From the IMG/VR virus record IMGVR_UViG_3300043436_004750: a stretch of 64,000 nucleotides of DNA. One strand, written 5' to 3'. This DNA is from a virus (lineage: Duplodnaviria > Heunggongvirae > Uroviricota > Caudoviricetes). The position numbers and the translations under genes are program-made. The notes beneath the pieces were generated by a model, which was not told the origin of the DNA, made no database searches, and worked only from the letters and a program-made list of their open reading frames with translations. Below, one piece after another: positions 50,552-62,302 of the stretch (positions within the stretch are counted from its first letter, which is position 1; every line of letters begins with the position of its first letter).

Positions 50552-52414
50552 ATGGCAGAAAGAAATCTTTTCTCTTCACTACAGCGATTATTTGCAACAG
50601 ATATATTAGTAAGAAACGTAGGAGGAGATGAATTAAAGATTGCTGACGTTAATCAAATTCAGACAACAGGTAAATATCAAACCAATTCATTGCTGGATAG
50701 ATTCTCACGTCTTTACATCTATAATAACAAAAACATATTCAATCCAAATCTTAACTACCAAACGTTAAGAATACAATTATACTCTGATTACGAAGCAATG
50801 GATACAGATCCACTTATTGCCTCCACCCTAGACATCCTAGCAGACGAAGCTACCCTTAAGAATGATATGGGGGAAGTTCTGTCTATTAAATCTTCAGATG
50901 AAAATATACAAAGAGTACTATACAACCTATACTACGATGTATTAAATATCGAATTTAATCTCTGGTCTTGGATTAGAAATATGTGTAAATACGGAGACTT
51001 CTTCCTAAAACTAGAAATCTCAGAAAAATTTGGAGTTTACAACGTAATCCCTTACACGGTTTATAACATGGTAAGGTATGAAGGACAAGATCCTAAAGAA
51101 CCAACCAAAGTAGTCTTTACTATCGATCCAGACGGATTAGCTTCTTCAGCAGACCCAAACTATATACCTAAAGCTAACAAGTCAGTTATTACTCTAGATA
51201 ATTACGAAGTAGCTCACTTCAGATTAATATCAGATACAAACTACCTTCCATACGGAAGATCTTATATAGAACCAGCCCGTAAGATATACAAACAGTTGAC
51301 TTTAATGGAGGATGCGATGTTGATTCATAGAATTATGAGAGCTCCTGAAAAAAGAACGTTCTATATTAATGTAGGTACTATCCCACCAAACGAAGTTGAG
51401 CAGTTCATGCAAAAAACTATCAACAGTATTAAAAAGACTCCATATGTAGATCCTCAGACAGGTGAATATAACCTGAGATTTAATATGATGAATATGATGG
51501 AGGATTTCTATCTTCCAGTTCGTGGAGGAGATACTTCTACAAAAATTGATACAACAAAAGGACTTGAATACGATGGTACAAACGATATCGAATACCTAAG
51601 AGATAAAATGTTTGCAGCATTAAAAGTACCAAAAGCATATTTCGGATACGAAAAAGACCTAACAGGCAAAGCAACACTTGCAGCAGAAGATATACGTTTT
51701 GCTAGAACAGTAGAAAGACTTCAGAGAATTGTAGAAAGTGAGTTAACAAAAATTGGATTAGTGCATTTATATGCTCAAGGATTTACAGGAGAATCCTTAA
51801 CCAATTTTGAAATTAGATTAACAACTCCATCTATTGTTTATGAACAAGAAAAAGTGGCTCTACTAAAAGAAAAGGTAGACCTTGCCCGTCAAATGCAAGA
51901 AACAAAATTATTCTCTACAGACTATATCTACGATAATATCTTTAACCTATCAGAAGATACATACAACGAAATGAGAGATCTTGTAAGAGAGGATGCAAAA
52001 AGAGACTTCAGATTATCTCAGATCGAAAACGAAGGAAATGATCCAATTATATCTGGAGAGTCTTACGGAACACCTCACGACCTAGCTTCCATGTACGGAA
52101 GAGAGAGAGGAGAACTACCAGCCGGGTATGATGAGGCAGAACCTAAACCAGAAGGTAGACCAAGAGAGAAGTTCTCAATACTAGGTACTCAGGCGGATCC
52201 CTTAGGAGGAAGAGATAGGTTAGGAGTGCATGGAATGAAAGGAGGTTATCCAAGTGATAACGAGAATGTAAAAGAAGGCATTAGAAACACACAATCAGTA
52301 TTCTTAAGAAACAAAGATATCTTTAAATCAGAAAAAAAATTAATCTTCGAAAAGAAACATGAAGAATCTTCAGATTTATTAAACGAAGATAATATTAAAG
52401 ATTTAGATAACTAA
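50552..52414 (+). CDS. portal protein (putative)
   Basis: 620 aa immediately after TerL. Confidence 0.5.
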   Translation: MAERNLFSSLQRLFATDILVRNVGGDELKIADVNQIQTTGKYQTNSLLDRFSRLYIYNNKNIFNPNLNYQTLRIQLYSDYEAMDTDPLIASTLDILADEATLKNDMGEVLSIKSSDENIQRVLYNLYYDVLNIEFNLWSWIRNMCKYGDFFLKLEISEKFGVYNVIPYTVYNMVRYEGQDPKEPTKVVFTIDPDGLASSADPNYIPKANKSVITLDNYEVAHFRLISDTNYLPYGRSYIEPARKIYKQLTLMEDAMLIHRIMRAPEKRTFYINVGTIPPNEVEQFMQKTINSIKKTPYVDPQTGEYNLRFNMMNMMEDFYLPVRGGDTSTKIDTTKGLEYDGTNDIEYLRDKMFAALKVPKAYFGYEKDLTGKATLAAEDIRFARTVERLQRIVESELTKIGLVHLYAQGFTGESLTNFEIRLTTPSIVYEQEKVALLKEKVDLARQMQETKLFSTDYIYDNIFNLSEDTYNEMRDLVREDAKRDFRLSQIENEGNDPIISGESYGTPHDLASMYGRERGELPAGYDEAEPKPEGRPREKFSILGTQADPLGGRDRLGVHGMKGGYPSDNENVKEGIRNTQSVFLRNKDIFKSEKKLIFEKKHEESSDLLNEDNIKDLDN

Positions 52415-52443
52415 TAGATATTTATAACAAAGACACTATTATT

Positions 52444-53298
52444 GTGAAGATAAAACATTCAAAATACAAAAATACGGGCCTTATATTTGAATTGCTAATA
52501 AAACAAGTAGCAGCAGATACTTTATCTAGAAAAGAATCACCAGCTATTAAAGTAATTAAAAAATTCTATACAGGAAATACTACTCTAGTAAAGGAATTCA
52601 AATTATATGATTTTATTTTAAAAAATAAAGGAATAGGTTCAAAAAAAGCTGAGACTATACTATCAACAATTGTTGAAATATCTAGGAAATTAGACCTAGA
52701 ATCCTTAAAGAAACAGAAGTATGAGTTAATTAAAGAATTGAAACAGCATTATAATTTAGAGGAATTCTTTTCTATGAAAGTGGACACTTATAAGCCATTA
52801 GCTGCTCTTTACTGTTTAATAGAAGCTCAAAATACTCCAAACTTATTAGATCCAAACGTATTTGTCAATAACAAGACTACACTTTTAGAACATTTAACAC
52901 AGACAAAACACTCAGAAGATCAGGTAAAAGACGCTTTAATTGAAGAGTATTCTAAATTTGATAAAGATCTACGTCTTTTAACATATAAAATCTTATTAGA
53001 AAAATTCAACGACCAATACAAAGATCTACTTCCAGAACAAAAAAATATATTAAAAGAGTTTATAGTATCAGCTAACTCCTCTATAAGACTTCGAAATATA
53101 GTAAACGAGGAAATAGAAAAACTAGGTAAAGATATCTCTACATTAAAAGCAAAAATTACCGATAGCGTTGTAAGAATTAAACTAGAAGAGATACAGAAAG
53201 TAATAATTCCAGTAAAAAATACACAAAAAGTTGATGATAATCACTTAGTTTCTTTAATGCAGTATTATGAATTAGTAAATGAGTTAAAAACTTTATGA
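52444..53298 (+). CDS. hypothetical head-module protein
   Basis: 284 aa, GTG start in track. Confidence 0.45.
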   Translation: MKIKHSKYKNTGLIFELLIKQVAADTLSRKESPAIKVIKKFYTGNTTLVKEFKLYDFILKNKGIGSKKAETILSTIVEISRKLDLESLKKQKYELIKELKQHYNLEEFFSMKVDTYKPLAALYCLIEAQNTPNLLDPNVFVNNKTTLLEHLTQTKHSEDQVKDALIEEYSKFDKDLRLLTYKILLEKFNDQYKDLLPEQKNILKEFIVSANSSIRLRNIVNEEIEKLGKDISTLKAKITDSVVRIKLEEIQKVIIPVKNTQKVDDNHLVSLMQYYELVNELKTL

Positions 53299-53516
53299 AA
53301 AAATCACAAATAGCTGCAATAATCAAAGAAGTTCTAGGTGAGATGAACGTAACAGGAGCTGTAGGGGGATATTCAACTCCAAATGCCTTTTCAAAAAAAG
53401 GACAAGGAAAAAATGTAGCTACTAAGACAGCAGAAAAATTAGGTTATAAAACAGTAGAAAGACCAAAAAGACCTTCACATACAAAAATGTTTGATTACTT
53501 AGACGAAAATAAATAA
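53295..53516 (+). CDS. hypothetical protein
   Basis: 73 aa. Confidence 0.45.
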   Translation: MKKSQIAAIIKEVLGEMNVTGAVGGYSTPNAFSKKGQGKNVATKTAEKLGYKTVERPKRPSHTKMFDYLDENK

Positions 53517-53517
53517 T

Positions 53518-55167
53518 ATGAGAACTTTACAAGAAAAATATAACGCAATACAAGAAGGGAACTTCTCTAAAGATCAATTCCTAGTAGAAGCTAGAATGCA
53601 ACAACCACAACTAATAACTCGTTTCAACGGATACGACGATGCAGTTCAGATCCTTAAGAATAGAGGAATGATTCAAGAAGCAGCTAATTTTAAATTTAGT
53701 GACCTTAAACAAGGTAGTATAATTCAAAATAAGTTTAGTGGAAAAAAATATACAGTTACTGCTGTTAGAGATAAGAGTGCAGATATACAAAAAGGAGATG
53801 ATGGAAGAGAAACAGAAATAGCTTCTTTAAATAACTATGAACTTGTAAAAGAAGCTAGACTTACTAATAAAAGCTTAACAGATTACAGGTATAAACCAAC
53901 TAACGAAATGGATAAGTATCCATACGAACAAATACTAAGAGGTTTAAGAGTTGAATTAGAAGTAATGGGAGTTCAAGGAACACCAACAGCAGAAGAGTAT
54001 GCAAAAGCATTAGCAAAAGTATCTAAAAATTTAGCAAAAGATTCAATCTTCTATACAAACCAATTAGCAGGAGTTAATCCAAAAGTTGATCTTCACGATA
54101 AGATGGTAGATGTTACAGCAAAAAATACTGTAGATACGTTTAATGGAATGAAGAAAGTAAAAGACTTAAAAGAAGGAAAAACACCAGATATCCAAGAACT
54201 TGTACTAGCTCTATTGAAGAAGCATCCTAACATGACCTGGACACAGGCTGTGAAGAAAGTCAAAGAAGATTTAAAAGAAGCTCATATAGTTCGTCCTGAT
54301 GGATCAATAAAAACATCAACAGATAAAACTAATAATAAACCAGGCTATACAGTAAAGCCAGGTGGTAGTATTAAAAAAGAAGATCATACTAAGAATCCTA
54401 ACGATAAATACGTAGTAAAGTTTTCAAAAGCAAACAACACCTATCAGGTATGGGAAGGAGATCACTTAGTAACAGATTTTGCTACTGAAGAAAAAGCAAA
54501 AGCTTATGCCGATAGAGAGAATAAAAAACAAGACTTAACTGAAAAAGTACTAAAAGAAGGAATTAAAAATCTTATTAAGAAAGTACTTAAAGAAGAAGAT
54601 TTAGAAAGAGCAGAAAGAGGGGTAGGAAATCCGTATGGAACAGAAGAGGAGTATGAACTATTCAACTCACCAGAGGAAGGAAAATCTGATGCAGAATATA
54701 AAAACGAATTAAAACAATACCTACAAGATAATCAAATCTACGGATATACAGATTACATACACGACCTAATGACAGGTCCGGATCCGGATGAAGCGTATAA
54801 GGATTTAGCAGAATTCTTAGAAGATGAAGGAATTTATGGATATAATAGAGGAATCGAAAGAATCTACGCAGACTATCCATACGATCAACATTGGATGAAT
54901 CAAGAAGATGAAGATAAAAGTTTAGAAGAAATAGGAATGTTTCATGATCCTGTTGGATATAGAGAATCTGAACCTAAGCCTCAAATGTATACAAAGAAAT
55001 TTGTAAGAGCTACCGATAAAAGGGGAATATATGTATATGATATTTTTAAAAACGGTAAACTAGTTAAAACCATTGAAGGAGGAGAAGGAGATGCTAATGC
55101 TTGGATGAATAATGCTAGTAGAGAGGAAGACCTATTCGAATCAATATCATTAAAAGATTTACTATAA
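53518..55167 (+). CDS. hypothetical head-module protein
   Basis: 549 aa. Confidence 0.55.
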   Translation: MRTLQEKYNAIQEGNFSKDQFLVEARMQQPQLITRFNGYDDAVQILKNRGMIQEAANFKFSDLKQGSIIQNKFSGKKYTVTAVRDKSADIQKGDDGRETEIASLNNYELVKEARLTNKSLTDYRYKPTNEMDKYPYEQILRGLRVELEVMGVQGTPTAEEYAKALAKVSKNLAKDSIFYTNQLAGVNPKVDLHDKMVDVTAKNTVDTFNGMKKVKDLKEGKTPDIQELVLALLKKHPNMTWTQAVKKVKEDLKEAHIVRPDGSIKTSTDKTNNKPGYTVKPGGSIKKEDHTKNPNDKYVVKFSKANNTYQVWEGDHLVTDFATEEKAKAYADRENKKQDLTEKVLKEGIKNLIKKVLKEEDLERAERGVGNPYGTEEEYELFNSPEEGKSDAEYKNELKQYLQDNQIYGYTDYIHDLMTGPDPDEAYKDLAEFLEDEGIYGYNRGIERIYADYPYDQHWMNQEDEDKSLEEIGMFHDPVGYRESEPKPQMYTKKFVRATDKRGIYVYDIFKNGKLVKTIEGGEGDANAWMNNASREEDLFESISLKDLL

Positions 55168-55745
55168 TGAATAACCTATTAATAAATGTAACTCCGTTTA
55201 AGACAGTACTTACAGAATCAAAGGCTAAACCCGGAGTATTCGAAGTAACAGGAGTTATGCAGAGAGCAGGAGCTAAGAATCAAAACGGAAGAATCTATAA
55301 AAGAGAAATTCTTGAACAAGAAGTAAAAAACTATATAGAGAATTTTGTAAAGGTAGGAAATGCCTACGGAGAATTAGACCACCCAGAATCAGCTGTAGTA
55401 TCATTAAAAAACGCTTCCCATGTTGTTAAAGAACTATGGTGGGATGGCCAAGAACTGATGGGAAGAGTGGAATTACTAAATACACCTTCAGGAAATATCG
55501 TAAAAGAGATTATTAGAGGAGGCCATACAATTGGAATATCATCTCGAGGAACAGGATCAGTAACACAGACAAATGAAGGAACTTTAATGGTACAGCCGGA
55601 CTTTCAATTAGTATGCTGGGACTTCGTATCAAATCCGAGTACAGATGGAGCTTTCATGACGCCTATTACCCTTAATGAGGGAGTTCAAAGTGTTAATAGA
55701 TATGCAAAATTGGATAGCATAATAAATAACATACTAAGAGCATAA
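55167..55745 (+). CDS. putative prohead protease/core protein (gp21 position)
   Basis: 192 aa; position before acidic scaffold and capsid genes. Confidence 0.35.
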   Translation: MNNLLINVTPFKTVLTESKAKPGVFEVTGVMQRAGAKNQNGRIYKREILEQEVKNYIENFVKVGNAYGELDHPESAVVSLKNASHVVKELWWDGQELMGRVELLNTPSGNIVKEIIRGGHTIGISSRGTGSVTQTNEGTLMVQPDFQLVCWDFVSNPSTDGAFMTPITLNEGVQSVNRYAKLDSIINNILRA

Positions 55746-56005
55746 TGAAAAACGATTTCGACATACATAACTGGCAAGCGAAGTTTCTAAAAGAAGAAAG
55801 CTCAAATACAAAAACTGCAGTAGAGTGGTTAGAAGAGAGATTAGCCATATCGTTTGGAGAGGAGATAAAGTCTCTAAGAGGATTTTTCGTTATCGCAAAA
55901 GAGCAAGAAAAGCAACAGATTGAAGATGCCTACGAAAAAGGCATTTCAGATAGAGAAAGCAGAAGATACTCAGAAGAATATAACAGTAACAACTATACAA
56001 AATAA
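55745..56005 (+). CDS. hypothetical protein
   Basis: 86 aa. Confidence 0.45.
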   Translation: MKNDFDIHNWQAKFLKEESSNTKTAVEWLEERLAISFGEEIKSLRGFFVIAKEQEKQQIEDAYEKGISDRESRRYSEEYNSNNYTK

Positions 56006-56008
56006 CAC

Positions 56009-56035
56009 ACCCACCCTAAAAAGGTGGGTTTTTTA
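56009..56035 (+). terminator. hairpin acccacc/ggtgggt + T6
   Basis: seen in sequence. Confidence 0.55.
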
Positions 56036-56159
56036 TGTTTTGTAAAACATAGTATATTTATTTAAGAATATATCACGACCCTATGTGATATCTACTAGAA
56101 AGTAAAACACTATTACGTCTCACACTCTACAATAGACGTACGACAAACAAACAAAAATT

Positions 56160-57239
56160 ATGTCAAACAAAGATTTATTTAAGCAAGCAATTGCCGAAGC
56201 TAAAACTATTCGTGAAGCTGCAATTACCAACGCTAAAGAAGCTTTAGAAGAATCATTAACACCTCATTTAAAAGAAATGTTAGCTCAAAAACTTCAAGAA
56301 ATGGAAGAAGATGACAACATGGAAGAAATCGTAAATGAAGAAGATATGATTAACGATCCACAAGGTGAAACTGCACACGGAAACGTAGCAGAAGCTGAAG
56401 AGGAAGAAGCTGAAGAAGCAGAAGGTGAAGAAGCAGAAGGTGAAGAAGCAGAAGGTGAAGAAGCTGAAGAAGAAGAGTTAGATCTTGAAAACATGTCTGT
56501 TGAGGAATTCAAAGACTTAGTTAGAGATATCGTAGCTCAAGAAATCGGTCAAGAAGGTTCAGAAGAAGAAATGCCAGGTGAAGAAGCTCCAGAAGGTGCT
56601 GAAGATATGGTAGGAATGGATTCTGAAGAAGAGATCGACATTAATGAACTTTTAGCTGAATTAGCAGAAATGGAAGAAAAGGAAGTACCGGTTGAAGAAG
56701 GTGCAGAAGGTTTTGATAAGTGGTTAGATGGTGTTTCTGCTCAAATGGAAAAATTTGGAAAAAACAATCCAGCTATTCAAGCAATCGAAAGAGCAATAGC
56801 AGCAGCACAAGACAAAGCTAAAAAAGCAGGAATAACAGGTCACGGTATGACAAAAGGACATAGAATATCTGAAAAGTCTGATGAATTAAAAGAAGCATTA
56901 GCAACTGTAGCAGAGTTAAGAACTCAATTACAAGAAGTTAATCTTCTAAACGCTAAATTACTTTATGTAAATAAGGTATTTAAAGCAAACAACTTAACTG
57001 AATCTCAAAAAGTAAATGTTGTAGCAGCATTTGATAAAGCAGAAACAGTAAAAGAAGTAAAATTAGTTTTCGAAACAGTTTCTAAAAACGTAGTTACTAA
57101 ACCAGTAACTATTAAAGAACACAAATCATTTGCATCTAAAGCAGCAGGAACTGCAGCAACAGCAGGTAAAAAAGAAATTATTTCTGAAGTATCTGAACAA
57201 GTAGCTAGATGGCAAAAATTAGCAGGAATTATAAAATAA
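56160..57239 (+). CDS. scaffolding protein (acidic, EEAEGE repeats)
   Basis: Very acidic coiled-coil; 18-bp x3 DNA repeat 56396-56470; precedes capsid gene. Confidence 0.5.
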   Translation: MSNKDLFKQAIAEAKTIREAAITNAKEALEESLTPHLKEMLAQKLQEMEEDDNMEEIVNEEDMINDPQGETAHGNVAEAEEEEAEEAEGEEAEGEEAEGEEAEEEELDLENMSVEEFKDLVRDIVAQEIGQEGSEEEMPGEEAPEGAEDMVGMDSEEEIDINELLAELAEMEEKEVPVEEGAEGFDKWLDGVSAQMEKFGKNNPAIQAIERAIAAAQDKAKKAGITGHGMTKGHRISEKSDELKEALATVAELRTQLQEVNLLNAKLLYVNKVFKANNLTESQKVNVVAAFDKAETVKEVKLVFETVSKNVVTKPVTIKEHKSFASKAAGTAATAGKKEIISEVSEQVARWQKLAGIIK

Positions 57240-57266
57240 TAACAAAAAAACAATTCAATTAAACAA

Positions 57267-58856
57267 ATGGAATTAAATCAATTATTAGAAAGCTCTAACA
57301 ATTACAAGTCTTTACAAGCAGATGCTGCTCGTTTGTCAAGTAAATGGAAAGCTACAGGTTTATTAGAGGGGATCTCTAATGAAATCGAAAGAAACAACAT
57401 GTCTATGATTCTTGAGAATCAAGCAAAACAATTAGTATCAGAACAATCAACCACAGGTACAGGAGCTTCTTTCTCAGCTGGACAAGGTGAGCAATGGGCA
57501 GGTGTTGCTTTACCATTAGTACGTAAAGTATTCGCTCAAATCGCTGCTAAAGATTTCGTTTCTGTACAGCCAATGAATTTACCTTCAGGTCTTGTATTCT
57601 ATTTAGATTTTAAATATGGTACAAACACTGTAGGATTTGCATCAGGAGATAACATGTACGGTAATGTATCTACTGCAGGAGACAAAATCGGAGTAGACGA
57701 AGAAGTATCAGGAGGTTTATACGGTGCTGGTAGATTTGGTTACTCAATCAACTCTGCATCTTTTGCAACAGGATCAATTACAGCAGCAGCTGCAACATCT
57801 GCTTCTATTGCATACCAAGATGGGATAATACCTTCTCAGTACAGAACTTATACAGTAGGGTTTGGAATTACAGGATATACAGATTTCGATGCAGAAGCAG
57901 TAAGATCTTTCCGTTTATATTCAGCGTCTATCGACATTACATCTAACCCAGAATTAACAACTGTATCAGGAAATAACGTAACTTTCGTAGTTTCACAATC
58001 ACTTGTAACAACAGCTAACTTAACAGATGCGGTAGTTAAATATAACAAACAACCAAAAGATAACTCAAGAGGTGATTTCGAAGATACTACAGGTACTTTA
58101 AAAATCCCAGAAATCAACGTAACATTAGCTTCTGAAGCAATTGTTGCTAAAACAAGAAAATTAAAAGCACAATGGACTCCAGAGTTCGCACAAGACCTTA
58201 ACGCTTACCATTCAATTGATGCTGAAGCAGAATTAACATCTTTATTATCTGAGTACATCTCTATGGAGATCGATTTAGAATTATTAGATATGTTGATCCA
58301 AGATGCAGCTACAACTGAAAGATGGTCAGCTAGAAACAACAAAGTTTGGACTGGAACAGCTTGGTCATCAGGAACTGCTGCTTCAACAGATTTCTACAAT
58401 ACTCAAGGTCAGTGGTTTGGAACTTTAGGTACTAAAGTACAAAAAGTATCTAACAAAATTCACCAAAAAACCCTTAGAGGTGGAGCTAACTTCTTAGTAT
58501 GTTCTCCTTCTGTAGCTACAATCCTAGAATCAATCCCAGGATATGCAGCTGATACCAATGGTGATAAAATGGACTTCGCAATGGGTGTTCAGAAAGTAGG
58601 AAACTTAAATTCTAGATTTAGAGTTTACAAAAATCCTTACATGACTGAAAATATAATCCTTATGGGTTACAGAGGATCTCAGTTCTTAGAAACTGGTGCA
58701 GTTTATGCTCCTTATGTACCATTAGTCATGACACCACTTATCTACGATCCAACTACCTTCACTCCAAGAAAAGGTATCATGACTCGTTACGCTAAGAAAA
58801 TGATAAGACCGGAATTTTATGGAAAAATCTTCGTAAGCGATTTAGCTACAGTTTAA
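57267..58856 (+). CDS. major capsid protein (putative)
   Basis: 529 aa after scaffold; followed by strong terminator. Confidence 0.55.
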   Translation: MELNQLLESSNNYKSLQADAARLSSKWKATGLLEGISNEIERNNMSMILENQAKQLVSEQSTTGTGASFSAGQGEQWAGVALPLVRKVFAQIAAKDFVSVQPMNLPSGLVFYLDFKYGTNTVGFASGDNMYGNVSTAGDKIGVDEEVSGGLYGAGRFGYSINSASFATGSITAAAATSASIAYQDGIIPSQYRTYTVGFGITGYTDFDAEAVRSFRLYSASIDITSNPELTTVSGNNVTFVVSQSLVTTANLTDAVVKYNKQPKDNSRGDFEDTTGTLKIPEINVTLASEAIVAKTRKLKAQWTPEFAQDLNAYHSIDAEAELTSLLSEYISMEIDLELLDMLIQDAATTERWSARNNKVWTGTAWSSGTAASTDFYNTQGQWFGTLGTKVQKVSNKIHQKTLRGGANFLVCSPSVATILESIPGYAADTNGDKMDFAMGVQKVGNLNSRFRVYKNPYMTENIILMGYRGSQFLETGAVYAPYVPLVMTPLIYDPTTFTPRKGIMTRYAKKMIRPEFYGKIFVSDLATV

Positions 58857-58880
58857 TCCATATAGAATTTAAAATAAGAA

Positions 58881-58905
58881 AGAGGACTTCGGTCCTCTTT
58901 TTTTA
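58881..58905 (+). terminator. intrinsic terminator agaggac-ttcg-gtcctct + T7
   Basis: seen in sequence. Confidence 0.6.
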
Positions 58906-58952
58906 TCTCTAAATATTTCGTATATTTATAATAAACAAATAAACGTTCTAGT

Positions 58953-60680
58953 ATGGCATCCAACCGGCACACCGATGAGGTTTTTACTCCAAAGAGAAAA
59001 CCGAAAAACCCAATTAAGTTCCAACTCCAACTTAATGAAGAACAAAAACTTGCAAAAGCACTTATCGTAGAAAATCCAGTAGTCGTTCTTAAGGGAATGG
59101 CTGGTTCAGGAAAGGCACAGCCACTAACCTCTAGGGTATATACTCCAAAAGGAGTAACTACTATGGGAGAGTTAAAAGTAGGAGACATTATCCTAGGGAG
59201 ATCAGGTACTACCACGGTACTGGGTATTTATCCACAAGGAGTAGAAAATGTGTACCAAATAACCCTTTCTGATGAAAGTACCGTACAATGTAGCTTAGAG
59301 CACCTATGGACAGTACAGCAGAAAAGATATTCAAGCAAACAGCTAAATTGGAAGGTACTTACGACAGGGGAACTTTTAAAAGACTTAGAAAAAGGAATAG
59401 AGTACAGGCTTCCAAACTTAGAAACACCTTTAGCTTTTGAAGAGAAACCTGTGGCGCTGGACCCTTACATAGTGGGAGTTTTATTGAGTGAAGGACACAT
59501 TAGGGAGGATGTAGTTACTCTTAGTACAAACGAACCAGAAGTACTACAAGAGATAAACAGTATACTAGAAGAAACTTCGACTGAATTAATACATGTAGTC
59601 AATTATGATTACAGATTCCGAAGAAGGAAGAGGAACAACACACCTAACACAGTAGTGGAAGCATGTAAAGAACTAAAACTCTCAGGAAAAACTTCTTATG
59701 ATAAATTTATACCAGAAGAGTACAGGTATAACTCTGAAAAAAATAGAATTAGATTACTTCAAGGATTAGTAGACGGAGACGGGTATGTAACAAAAGGAGG
59801 TAGTTTATTATATAACACAAGCAGTAAACAACTAGCCGAAGATGTAAAGGAAATGTTTCAGTCCCTTGGAGGAAGAGTTACTGTCCTGAAGTATTTTCCA
59901 AAGTATAATTACAGAGGAGTTAAAAAAACCTCTCTCCATCTACATTACCAGCTATCCATTACAATTGAACACCCTGAACGATTTACAACAATACCCTTTA
60001 AGAAAGAGAGATTGCAGAAGAGAGAACGTAAAGTTAAGTACACGAGTAGGGTTATTAAGAGTATTAAAAAAGTCGGACAAGCACAAACACAGTGTATACA
60101 GGTAAGTGCTTCAGACAGCTTATACGTAACCGACAATTGCATACTTACTCACAATACACTAGTAGCAGTACAAGCAGCCCTAGATATGCTTTTCTGTAAA
60201 GAGGTAGAGAAGATTATTATAACAAGGCCAACAGTAGCTAAAGAAGAATTAGGATTTTTACCAGGCGATCTTAAGGAAAAAATGGATCCTTGGTTAGCAC
60301 CGATATATCACAACTTATACATGTTATATGGTAAGGATAAAGTAGACAGAGAAATAGAAGATGGAAATATTGAAATTGTACCATTTGCATTTATGAGAGG
60401 TAGAACATTTGTTAACTCTTTTGTAATTGTAGATGAGGCACAAAACGTAACCCATGATCAAATGGAAACAGTACTAGGAAGACTAGGTAAAGGGTCTAAA
60501 ATGGTAGTATGTGGGGATTTAGCTCAAATTGATTTAAAAATAAAAAAAGAAACTGGTTTTTCATTTCTAACTAGAATTGAAGAACAGGTACCTGGCTTTA
60601 AAATCTTTGCTTTAAAAGCAAACCACAGACATGAAATAGTATCACCAATACTGAAGGTATATCAAGACTTTAGGGACTAG
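58953..60680 (+). CDS. phoH: PhoH-like ATPase interrupted by an intein
   Basis: GMAGSGK | intein | TLVAVQAAL..., VVCGDLAQIDL, VDEAQN PhoH motifs. Confidence 0.7.
   Translation: MASNRHTDEVFTPKRKPKNPIKFQLQLNEEQKLAKALIVENPVVVLKGMAGSGKAQPLTSRVYTPKGVTTMGELKVGDIILGRSGTTTVLGIYPQGVENVYQITLSDESTVQCSLEHLWTVQQKRYSSKQLNWKVLTTGELLKDLEKGIEYRLPNLETPLAFEEKPVALDPYIVGVLLSEGHIREDVVTLSTNEPEVLQEINSILEETSTELIHVVNYDYRFRRRKRNNTPNTVVEACKELKLSGKTSYDKFIPEEYRYNSEKNRIRLLQGLVDGDGYVTKGGSLLYNTSSKQLAEDVKEMFQSLGGRVTVLKYFPKYNYRGVKKTSLHLHYQLSITIEHPERFTTIPFKKERLQKRERKVKYTSRVIKSIKKVGQAQTQCIQVSASDSLYVTDNCILTHNTLVAVQAALDMLFCKEVEKIIITRPTVAKEELGFLPGDLKEKMDPWLAPIYHNLYMLYGKDKVDREIEDGNIEIVPFAFMRGRTFVNSFVIVDEAQNVTHDQMETVLGRLGKGSKMVVCGDLAQIDLKIKKETGFSFLTRIEEQVPGFKIFALKANHRHEIVSPILKVYQDFRD
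59115..60155 (+). mobile_element. intein (347 aa) with LAGLIDADG homing-endonuclease domain, Ala1 ... HN/T junctions
   Basis: Inserted after GSGK of the P-loop; YIVGVLLSEGHI and LLQGLVDGDGYV LAGLIDADG motifs; ends ILTHN followed by Thr+1. Confidence 0.65.
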
Positions 60681-61108: not shown

Positions 61109-62302
61109 ATGGCTGTAAATATATCTACAGATACAAATACCGTAAAGGTAACCTCTACATCAACAAATAATGTTAAGATAGTGGATAACGGAAACAATAC
61201 TTCGGTGACTGTTTCACAACCTACTACAGGAGTTATCAAAGTTGTAACTGCAGGACCACAAGGACCGCCAGGCATTAGTGTAAATACAGGATCTTTCACA
61301 AATACAGATTCATTTAATGCTTTTACTTCTTCTTATAATACAGGAAGTTTTACAGGAAGTTTTACAGGAGATGGATCAGGACTCTATGACATACCAGCAT
61401 CAGGAATTATAGGGTTAAACCTATCACAGATTTCTTCAGGCTCAGTTTCAGCTACTATCTCACCAGGAAACGGATTACAGAGTAATGTAGGAATAATAGC
61501 ACCTTCATTTACAGGTTCTTTATTTGGTACAGCATCATTTGTTGATGTGAGTGCTTTATTAGGTTTTACACCCGAAAACGTAGCGAATAAAAACACGTCT
61601 ACTGCTTTAGGCACAAGTGATAGTTTGTACCCTACACAAAATGCAGTTAAAACGTATGTAGATACAGGACTTTCAGCAAAGCAGAATAGTTTAGGCTTCA
61701 CACCCGAAAACGTAGCTAATAAAAGTACTACAACATCTTTAGGTACAAGTGATAGTTTATACCCTACTCAAAATGCAGTTAAAACGTATGTTGATGGAAA
61801 AAAATCAAATTTAATTTTATATGGTAGTTATGGTACTATAAATTCCGTTGCTGGTACTTGGTATACTTGGAATGCTTCGCAAGCAATGTTATCTGGTGCT
61901 ACTTCTGCTTATGGTACATCAACAGAACCAACAATATTAGCAAATCCACCATTTAATCACGGAATATATGATTCAAACCAAATTTACTTAAGAGGTGCAA
62001 AAAGATTAGTAAGAGCTTGGTTTTCATACAGACAAACAACAGGTACACAAAGTCAAATGCAATTTTATATAGTATCAAATGGATTGATTGGAAATGACTC
62101 TTGGTACAATACTACAAATAGAGTAGTTTTAGCAAATCATTTAAGTGTTACTCAAAATAATATTTTTGTAGAAATACCAATAAATACCAATGATTTAAGT
62201 GCTACTGATGGTAATAGTATTTATTTTTTTTATAGAAAAGTAACAGGAACAGGAACTACAATTAATGGTGTAAAATTATATTTAGAATTTGAAATGATTT
62301 AA
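61109..62302 (+). CDS. putative fibre/structural protein with internal 40-aa duplication
   Basis: LGFTPENVANK.T.T.LGTSDSLYPTQNAVKTYVD twice (DNA 61561-61800). Confidence 0.55.
   Translation: MAVNISTDTNTVKVTSTSTNNVKIVDNGNNTSVTVSQPTTGVIKVVTAGPQGPPGISVNTGSFTNTDSFNAFTSSYNTGSFTGSFTGDGSGLYDIPASGIIGLNLSQISSGSVSATISPGNGLQSNVGIIAPSFTGSLFGTASFVDVSALLGFTPENVANKNTSTALGTSDSLYPTQNAVKTYVDTGLSAKQNSLGFTPENVANKSTTTSLGTSDSLYPTQNAVKTYVDGKKSNLILYGSYGTINSVAGTWYTWNASQAMLSGATSAYGTSTEPTILANPPFNHGIYDSNQIYLRGAKRLVRAWFSYRQTTGTQSQMQFYIVSNGLIGNDSWYNTTNRVVLANHLSVTQNNIFVEIPINTNDLSATDGNSIYFFYRKVTGTGTTINGVKLYLEFEMI

Follow-up and report, generated by a model that had tools for sequence, protein, structure and literature searches.

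Class 3 inteins are recognized by a first residue other than Cys, Ser or Thr and by three co-varying residues, Trp B:12, Cys F:4 and Thr G:5 (the WCT triplet), with Thr or Ser at position +1 and an insertion site that is usually the P-loop of a helicase-like ATPase (PMC2807308, PMC5050341). In these inteins, the block F Cys attacks the N-terminal junction, and not residue 1 or +1 (PMC2807308). Class 2 (KlbA) inteins begin with Ala as well but have no WCT triplet, and their studied member, the Mja KlbA intein, uses Cys+1 directly on the N-terminal junction (Tori et al., 2010; PMC2807308). At least 1701 class 3 inteins are present in nr, 82.5% of them with LAGLIDADG motifs (PMC7891396), and the position between the P-loop Lys and Thr (GK/T; a slash marks an intein junction throughout) is considered a "classic" insertion site (PMC5050341). 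A phage origin was claimed for the class by Tori and Perler (2011), as relayed by Kelley 2016 (PMC5050341). PhoH is among the 15 commonest bacterial intein hosts, with 21 bacterial PhoH inteins in Actinobacteria and Deinococcus-Thermus (Novikova et al., 2016; PMC4760082). Class 3 PhoH inteins are known in M. fortuitum and M. xenopi (Kelley et al., 2018; PMC6195587), and the PhoH of Campylobacter phage IBB_35 contains an intein (Carvalho et al., 2012; PMC3322345). Here, we analyzed an insert in the phoH gene of a tailed phage (Caudoviricetes) from the IMG/VR database, using a DNA stretch of 64,000 nucleotides (record IMGVR_UViG_3300043436_004750), hereafter called the window. A first-pass annotation made from the letters of the window had reported this insert at 59115-60155, and its coordinates and description proved exact; its statement that no PhoH inteins were known to have been reported is contradicted by the three studies above. 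We conclude that the insert is very probably an intein of class 3 that harbours a LAGLIDADG homing endonuclease and is located at the GSGK/T site of the PhoH of an Immutovirus-like Flavobacterium myophage. We found no published account of a phage P-loop PhoH intein as such, and its occurrence in a phage is new only as a host-site combination within a known intein class.

The boundaries of the insert were defined by comparison with an intein-less allele. The Walker A motif of PhoH halts at GMAGSGK (Lys54) and the sequence TLVAVQAAL picks up 347 residues further on, so that the precursor junctions read ...KGMAGSGK/AQPLTSRVYT...VTDNCILTHN/TLVAVQAAL.... The first intein codon is codon 55 (GCA, Ala) at 59115, and the last two are codons 400-401 (CAC AAT, His-Asn), ending at 60155. 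The intact 228-amino acid (aa) PhoH of Flavobacterium phage vB_FspM_immuto (NC_055915; hereafter immuto) shares 95% aa identity with the flanks, and the alignment contains a single gap of 347 residues exactly between GSGK and TLVA, confirming the precise insertion that had been predicted. Because the flanking residues differ from the terminal residues of the insert, these boundaries cannot be shifted. When the insert was deleted in silico, the score against Pfam PhoH rose from 200.3 bits to 219.7 bits, and a single contiguous match spanned positions 6-205 of the 205 in the profile. As the first-pass annotation had observed, THN is followed by Thr, and TLVA... completes a GSGKT P-loop. The spliced protein has both GSGKT and VIVDEAQN intact, as in PhoH-like P-loop ATPases of PF02562, and the C-extein was matched by Foldseek to PhoH2 (3b85) with 38% identity. 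Intein-less alleles, which the first-pass annotation had proposed to look for, were not limited to immuto: all of the best 80 IMG/VR relatives of the spliced PhoH (75-95% identity) were intein-less, with uninterrupted genes of 684-690 nucleotides, although this single-sequence intein scan reaches close relatives only and 1-versus-80 is not a true frequency. The insert is thus in frame within a conserved host protein, missing from its orthologues and exactly delimited, as expected of an intein. A group I intron or a free-standing endonuclease gene was ruled out by the continuous frame, with no stop inside the 575-aa open reading frame (ORF). A tblastn search found no further intein of the same family elsewhere in the window.

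The presence of a splicing (HINT) domain was examined using solved inteins and a predicted structure. With phmmer, the N-terminal 66 residues of the intein matched the gp41-1 intein (6qaz, E 3e-10) and the engineered gp41-1_WCT (6riz, E 9e-13), and the same region matched DnaB inteins of class 3 at E ~1e-3, from M. chimaera (6rix, 6riy) and M. smegmatis (6bs8); the alignments extended over residues 4-69 for the gp41-1 intein and 6-76 for the M. chimaera intein MchDnaB1. An AlphaFold2 (AF2) model of the precursor, built with 19 homologues, had a mean predicted local distance difference test (pLDDT) score of 76.8, reaching ~90 in the endonuclease domain. Foldseek related this model to PI-SceI, TliVMA and PI-PfuI (E 5e-15 to 2e-11), as well as to PhoH2 (3b85), gp41-1 and class 3 DnaB mini-inteins. 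Sequence and model together point to a HINT fold with blocks A, B, F and G, and the C-terminal His-Asn is followed by Thr at +1 (THN/T at 60147-60158).

The features required of class 3 were all found, namely Ala1, the WCT triplet (W65, C327, T345) and Thr+1. HMMER alignments placed the W, the C and the T-H-N of the intein opposite their equivalents in the class 3 intein MchDnaB1 (6rix), and also opposite those of gp41-1_WCT (6riz). Among the database relatives, defined by E <= 1e-5, H-x-W, the block F Cys and T-H-N were invariant (37 of 37) and the +1 residue was Thr or Ser, while residue 1 was Ala, with Glu or Gln in a few. Most of these relatives lie in GxxGxGK/(T or S) P-loops of PhoH, AAA_24 and DnaB proteins. 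A class 1 intein should start with Cys or Ser rather than Ala; class 1 with shifted boundaries was considered and rejected, since the junctions are set by the intein-less allele and position 1 is then neither Cys nor Ser. The coordinates of these features are given in Table 1.

Table 1. Features of the phoH precursor gene in the window, with functional roles as predicted from alignments and the structural model.
Feature	Position	Strand	Details and basis
PhoH precursor ORF (N-extein, intein, C-extein)	58953..60680	+	575 aa plus stop; Pfam PhoH PF02562, 200.3 bits
N-extein, aa 1-54, ends in Walker A GMAGSGK	58953..59114	+	2 of 54 residues differ from immuto PhoH N-terminus
Intein, 347 aa, Ala1 ... 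Thr345-His346-Asn347	59115..60155	+	exact gap against intein-less allele; solved-intein matches; predicted fold
N-terminal HINT part, blocks A and B, intein 1-106 (end approximate)	59115..59432	+	phmmer; beta-strand region in AF2 model
Block B His63-Leu64-Trp65 (CAC CTA TGG); Trp65 is W of WCT (B:12), His63 is B:10	59301..59309	+	aligned to 6rix, 6riz
LAGLIDADG homing endonuclease domain, intein ~107-301	59433..60017	+	Pfam; pLDDT ~90; Foldseek; dN/dS 0.137
LAGLIDADG motif 1 YIVGVLLSEG, catalytic-position Glu126	59466..59495	+	alignment of relatives
LAGLIDADG motif 2 LLQGLVDGDG, catalytic-position Asp222	59754..59783	+	alignment of relatives
C-terminal HINT part, blocks F and G	60018..60155	+	phmmer; relatives' alignment; AF2 model
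Cys327 (TGT), block F:4, predicted initiating nucleophile, C of WCT	60093..60095	+	aligned to MchDnaB1 catalytic Cys
Thr345-His346-Asn347 (ACT CAC AAT): T of WCT (G:5), penultimate His, terminal Asn predicted to cyclise	60147..60155	+	sequence; alignments
Thr+1 (ACA), first C-extein residue, predicted N-extein acceptor, Walker A Thr of GSGKT once ligated	60156..60158	+	sequence; immuto alignment
C-extein, aa 402-575, rest of PhoH ATPase with Walker B VIVDEAQN	60156..60677	+	Pfam; immuto alignment; Foldseek

Some results weigh against an active class 3 intein. No Hint or intein splicing-domain model of Pfam or NCBIfam matched at E <= 0.1, and these scans retrieved only endonuclease models and weak "intein-containing protein" models; the identification of the splicing domain therefore rests on the matches to solved inteins and on the predicted fold. 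The profile search proposed in the first-pass annotation was thus productive for the endonuclease (LAGLIDADG_3 and Hom_end) but not for the splicing domain. The AF2 model was also unsure at both junctions, with pLDDT < 50 at residues 49-53 and 396-401. Finally, the related gp41-1 intein, which is of class 1, did not splice productively or efficiently when the WCT residues were grafted onto it (PMC7664689), and for this reason the triplet alone does not prove activity.

The splicing chemistry is inferred from family membership, and the endonuclease activity is likewise a prediction. The phoH gene would be translated as a ~65 kDa precursor with a split P-loop, which is presumably inactive. Cys327 (F:4), activated by His63/Trp65 and Thr345, would attack the Lys54-Ala1 bond to form a branched thioester, and the N-extein would then move onto the side chain of Thr+1. 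Cyclisation of Asn347 would free the intein, and an O-to-N shift would yield the native GSGKT P-loop of a 228-aa PhoH. During co-infection, the freed intein or its endonuclease domain is predicted to cut an intein-less phoH at GGTTCAGGAAAG/ACACT, and repair of the cut allele would copy the intein in (homing).

The middle of the insert matched the Pfam families LAGLIDADG_3 (44.6 bits, cut-off 22.5) and Hom_end (34.1 bits, cut-off 21.1), and Foldseek related this domain to PI-SceI, PI-PfuI and I-Tsp061I. With the matches to solved inteins, these results bear out the two LAGLIDADG motifs and the Hint-like blocks noticed in the first-pass annotation, and the resemblance cannot be put down to chance. 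The two motifs, their acidic residues and the modelled alpha-beta-beta-alpha-beta-beta-alpha fold are those of a putative PI-SceI-type LAGLIDADG endonuclease. An acidic residue (E/D) in motif 1 was present in 33 of the 34 full-length relatives, P0034 having Asn. The D-x-D-G of motif 2 was conserved in the full-length relatives and was absent or degenerate in P0035-P0037, which are mini-intein relatives with a lost or degraded endonuclease domain. The candidate homing target in the immuto phoH, ATATTAAAAGGAATGGCAGGTTCAGGAAAG/ACACTTGTAGCAGTACAAGCAGCTTTAGAT, has 2 synonymous differences from the window flanks within 15 nucleotides on either side.

To estimate selection, the window allele was compared with P0002 (locus L003), the closest distinct intein-bearing allele, which is carried by another phage contig with the gene order gp23-phoH-gp13. 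In the splicing domain, the ratio of nonsynonymous to synonymous substitution rates (dN/dS) was 0.134; it was 0.137 in the endonuclease domain and 0.136 over the whole intein, with a synonymous rate (dS) of 0.39 in each case. Splicing and endonuclease domains are both under purifying selection. The exteins had a dN/dS of 0.05 and a dS of 1.78. Nucleotide identity to P0002 was 89% in the intein and 76-80% in the exteins, and changed abruptly at both intein junctions; at third codon positions, identity was 81% vs 57% (Fisher p = 4e-10). Because the dS of the intein is 0.39 and that of the exteins 1.78, the inteins of the window and P0002 have a more recent common ancestor than their host genes. 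This discontinuity at synonymous sites indicates a recent lateral transfer, the footprint expected of homing. The window exteins were nearest to intein-less alleles (95% aa identity to immuto), and the intein is sporadically distributed.

These data also bear on whether each activity has been retained. Many LAGLIDADG inteins are at a stage of the homing cycle where splicing persists, the endonuclease is dead and inheritance is only vertical, and P0035-P0037 have indeed lost or degraded the domain; for the window intein this state is unlikely, given that both catalytic acidic residues are present, that the endonuclease domain is as constrained as the splicing domain, that the dS contrast points to lateral transfer after the hosts diverged, and that the nearest host alleles have no intein. 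The insert could also be a decayed, non-splicing remnant, permanently inserted in a PhoH that is either inactive or tolerates an additional domain. We consider this very improbable: inactive intein pseudogenes do exist, PMC3196547 mentioning Arthrobacter Arth_1007 as one, and the WCT triplet is by itself insufficient for splicing (PMC7664689), but all the catalytic residues (A1, H63, W65, C327, T345, H346, N347, T+1) are intact, here and family-wide, and the low dN/dS of the splicing domain is at odds with decay. Moreover, the low dN/dS of the exteins despite a split Walker A would be sensible only if the insert is removed; because exteins with a split P-loop stay under strong purifying selection, the comparison argues that removal would occur after translation. 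A class 2 intein, in which the +1 residue would hit the N-terminal junction directly without a block F intermediate, is hardly credible, since the Ala start with no N-terminal nucleophile fits this class but W65, C327 and T345, whose absence it requires, are all present and invariant in the family, Thr+1 is a poor nucleophile toward an amide and stands where Mja KlbA uses Cys+1 (PMC2807308), and among solved inteins the closest are gp41-1 and those of class 3 in DnaB, rather than KlbA. The first-pass annotation, which had proposed a KlbA-type intein with a non-canonical splicing path, was therefore right that Ala1 calls for a non-canonical first step, but Thr+1 and the full WCT triplet place the intein in class 3 instead.

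The exact precursor protein was already present in public collections, in a cluster of 5 members labelled only "phosphate starvation-inducible protein PhoH". Relatives of the intein in the protein database occupied the same GK/T site in about two dozen PhoH proteins, and others were found in AAA_24, DnaB and further proteins. Relatives at 30-38% identity were found in 511 phage records, mainly in helicases and terminases, and bacterial and archaeal genomes contained >500 loci with the AQPL...THN/T intein family. We parsed the junctions of 80 bacterial loci, using tblastn-anchored boundaries for the PhoH loci; for the non-PhoH hosts among the 80, assignments are reliable only at an intein length of ~340-365 aa. 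Ten PhoH-hosted loci, from Acidobacteria, Actinomycetota, Planctomycetota and Deinococcales, had the intein at an FMRGR/T site (L119, L137, L142, L145, L146, L151, L152, L154, L172, L174), one had it at an LPG/T site (L103), and two metagenome-assembled genomes had it at the P-loop site (L095, L096). These three bacterial PhoH sites of the class 3 family each directly precede Thr or Ser. The intein of L154 opens with Ser (SQPL), with the remaining class 3 signature intact. Same-family inteins were also found outside P-loops, in a CHAP-domain protein (P0024, ...TIEGN/AQPL), a T4 gp19-like tail tube protein (P0030, ...REGGMN/AQPA) and a PDDEXK protein (P0032, ...VTDNK/AQPL); because of these hosts, the family is not confined to ATPase P-loops.

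The window is related to immuto (genus Immutovirus), with ~86% nucleotide identity over about half of the 40-64 kb region. Directly upstream of the phoH ORF lies a T4-type major capsid gene (57267-58856, Pfam Gp23), whose product has 76% aa identity to the immuto major capsid protein. The interval between the capsid gene and phoH was compared among contigs (window, 57267-58856 and 58953; L001, 1993-3916; L003, 1546-2928). Immuto has two additional genes there, coding for an 89-aa "tail fiber protein" and a 546-aa hypothetical protein, and no match to these two was found within positions 52000-57300 of the window. In L003 and L005, both of them intein-bearing contigs, a 460-aa gene occupies this interval. 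In the window, this interval contains a GC-rich hairpin at 58879-58900 (AAAGAGGAC-TTCG-GTCCTCTTT) bordered by runs of T and A; it is probably a bidirectional intrinsic terminator. The last 30 nucleotides ahead of the phoH start (TTTCGTATATTTAT..AAACAAATA), a possible promoter, are also conserved in immuto. Downstream, an ORF of 397 aa (61109-62302) contains a 35-aa unit, LGFTPENVANK(N/S)T(S/T)T(A/S)LGTSDSLYPTQNAVKTYVD, in two near-identical copies (61559-61801) that are 44 aa apart. A Pfam search gave no match for this ORF; the syntenic gene is annotated as a "putative head completion protein" in immuto, and the counterpart in L003 matches Phage_T4_gp13. Two antisense ORFs (58853-59215 and 59945-60142) were taken as chance ORFs, as nothing supports them.

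The relevance of the window intein lies mainly in annotation. In public sources, this protein and its relatives are named just "hint domain protein" or "PhoH", and their splicing domain goes unrecognized by the standard intein models of Pfam and NCBIfam; therefore, phoH-based phage diversity surveys and gene callers will mis-size such alleles. The intein leaves known splicing mechanisms unchanged and is a routine further example of class 3. It nonetheless adds a well-populated phage class 3 family related to gp41-1, which inserts ahead of Thr at no fewer than three positions in PhoH and is also hosted by many other P-loop ATPases, and the window/P0002 pair shows a recent lateral intein transfer between phage lineages. 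Conditional splicing has been shown for DnaBi1 of M. smegmatis, a class 3 P-loop intein. By analogy, and speculatively, a redox- or zinc-sensitive switch could be made up of the catalytic Cys327 and one of two cysteines close by, Cys59 in block B or Cys342 in block G. If so, PhoH would be held inactive until the conditions of the infected cell allow splicing, and the intein would be more than a selfish passenger. The AQPL...HLW...QCI...THN/T family is nearer in sequence to class 1 gp41-1 than to the solved class 3 inteins, and one may speculate that it supplies the natural compensatory changes that were missing from the failed conversion of gp41-1 to class 3. The family would then inform the origin of class 3, by divergence or by convergence. 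Taken jointly, a switch role for the intein and a bearing of its family on the gp41-1/class 3 relationship are distinctly doubtful.

Several described inteins share part of these properties. KlbA inteins of class 2 have Ala1 in common with the window intein, hence no N-S acyl shift, but known examples are archaeal, the Mja example has Cys+1 and the class has no WCT, whereas the window intein has Thr+1 and the triplet. The PhoH intein of Campylobacter phage IBB_35 (HM246720; L094, 971-2887) differs in being a class 1 mini-intein, with Cys1 and Cys+1, located at Walker B; the junctions of this "PhoH family precursor" taken from the record are VIVDE/CLHEDQ...GVLSKN/CQNISQ. The gp41-1 intein (6qaz), from a cyanophage-like gp41 helicase, was the top-scoring solved relative; the two are 37% identical over 65 N-terminal residues and both end in ILTHN. 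However, it belongs to class 1, with Cys1 and with Phe and Asp in place of the W and the C, is naturally split, has no endonuclease and lies outside a GK/T P-loop. The PhoH inteins described in mycobacteria (M. fortuitum, M. xenopi) share both the host family and class 3 with the window intein.

Class 3 inteins, whose prototype is the DnaB intein of mycobacteriophage Bethlehem and whose solved examples include Msm DnaBi1 (6bs8) and Mch DnaB1 (6rix), have in common with the window intein a non-nucleophilic residue 1, the WCT triplet, Thr+1 and the His-Asn end, as well as occurrence in a phage, insertion behind the Lys of the P-loop in a helicase-like ATPase, and a LAGLIDADG domain within the intein. 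They differ by their hosts (DnaB, TerL and Snf2 vs PhoH here) and by a weak sequence match (E ~1e-3), and residue 1 is Pro in the Bethlehem (MP-Be) DnaB intein vs Ala in the window. A counterpart of the same family, at the same P-loop site and with a LAGLIDADG domain, was found in the cultured Vibrio phage 1.161.O._10N.261.48.C5 (MG592529, AUR91592; L002, 712-3156), whose precursor reads GAAGSGK/AQPLYSKVLT ... DHLW ... KCILID ... VVTHN/TLMA. The AUR91592 record says only "hedgehog/hint domain protein", which masks the PIN-PhoH host and leaves the intein class and boundaries unannotated. This Vibrio phage precursor differs from that of the window in its host protein, an 815-aa PhoH2-type with an N-terminal PIN domain, and the two are ~34% identical over the aligned precursor.

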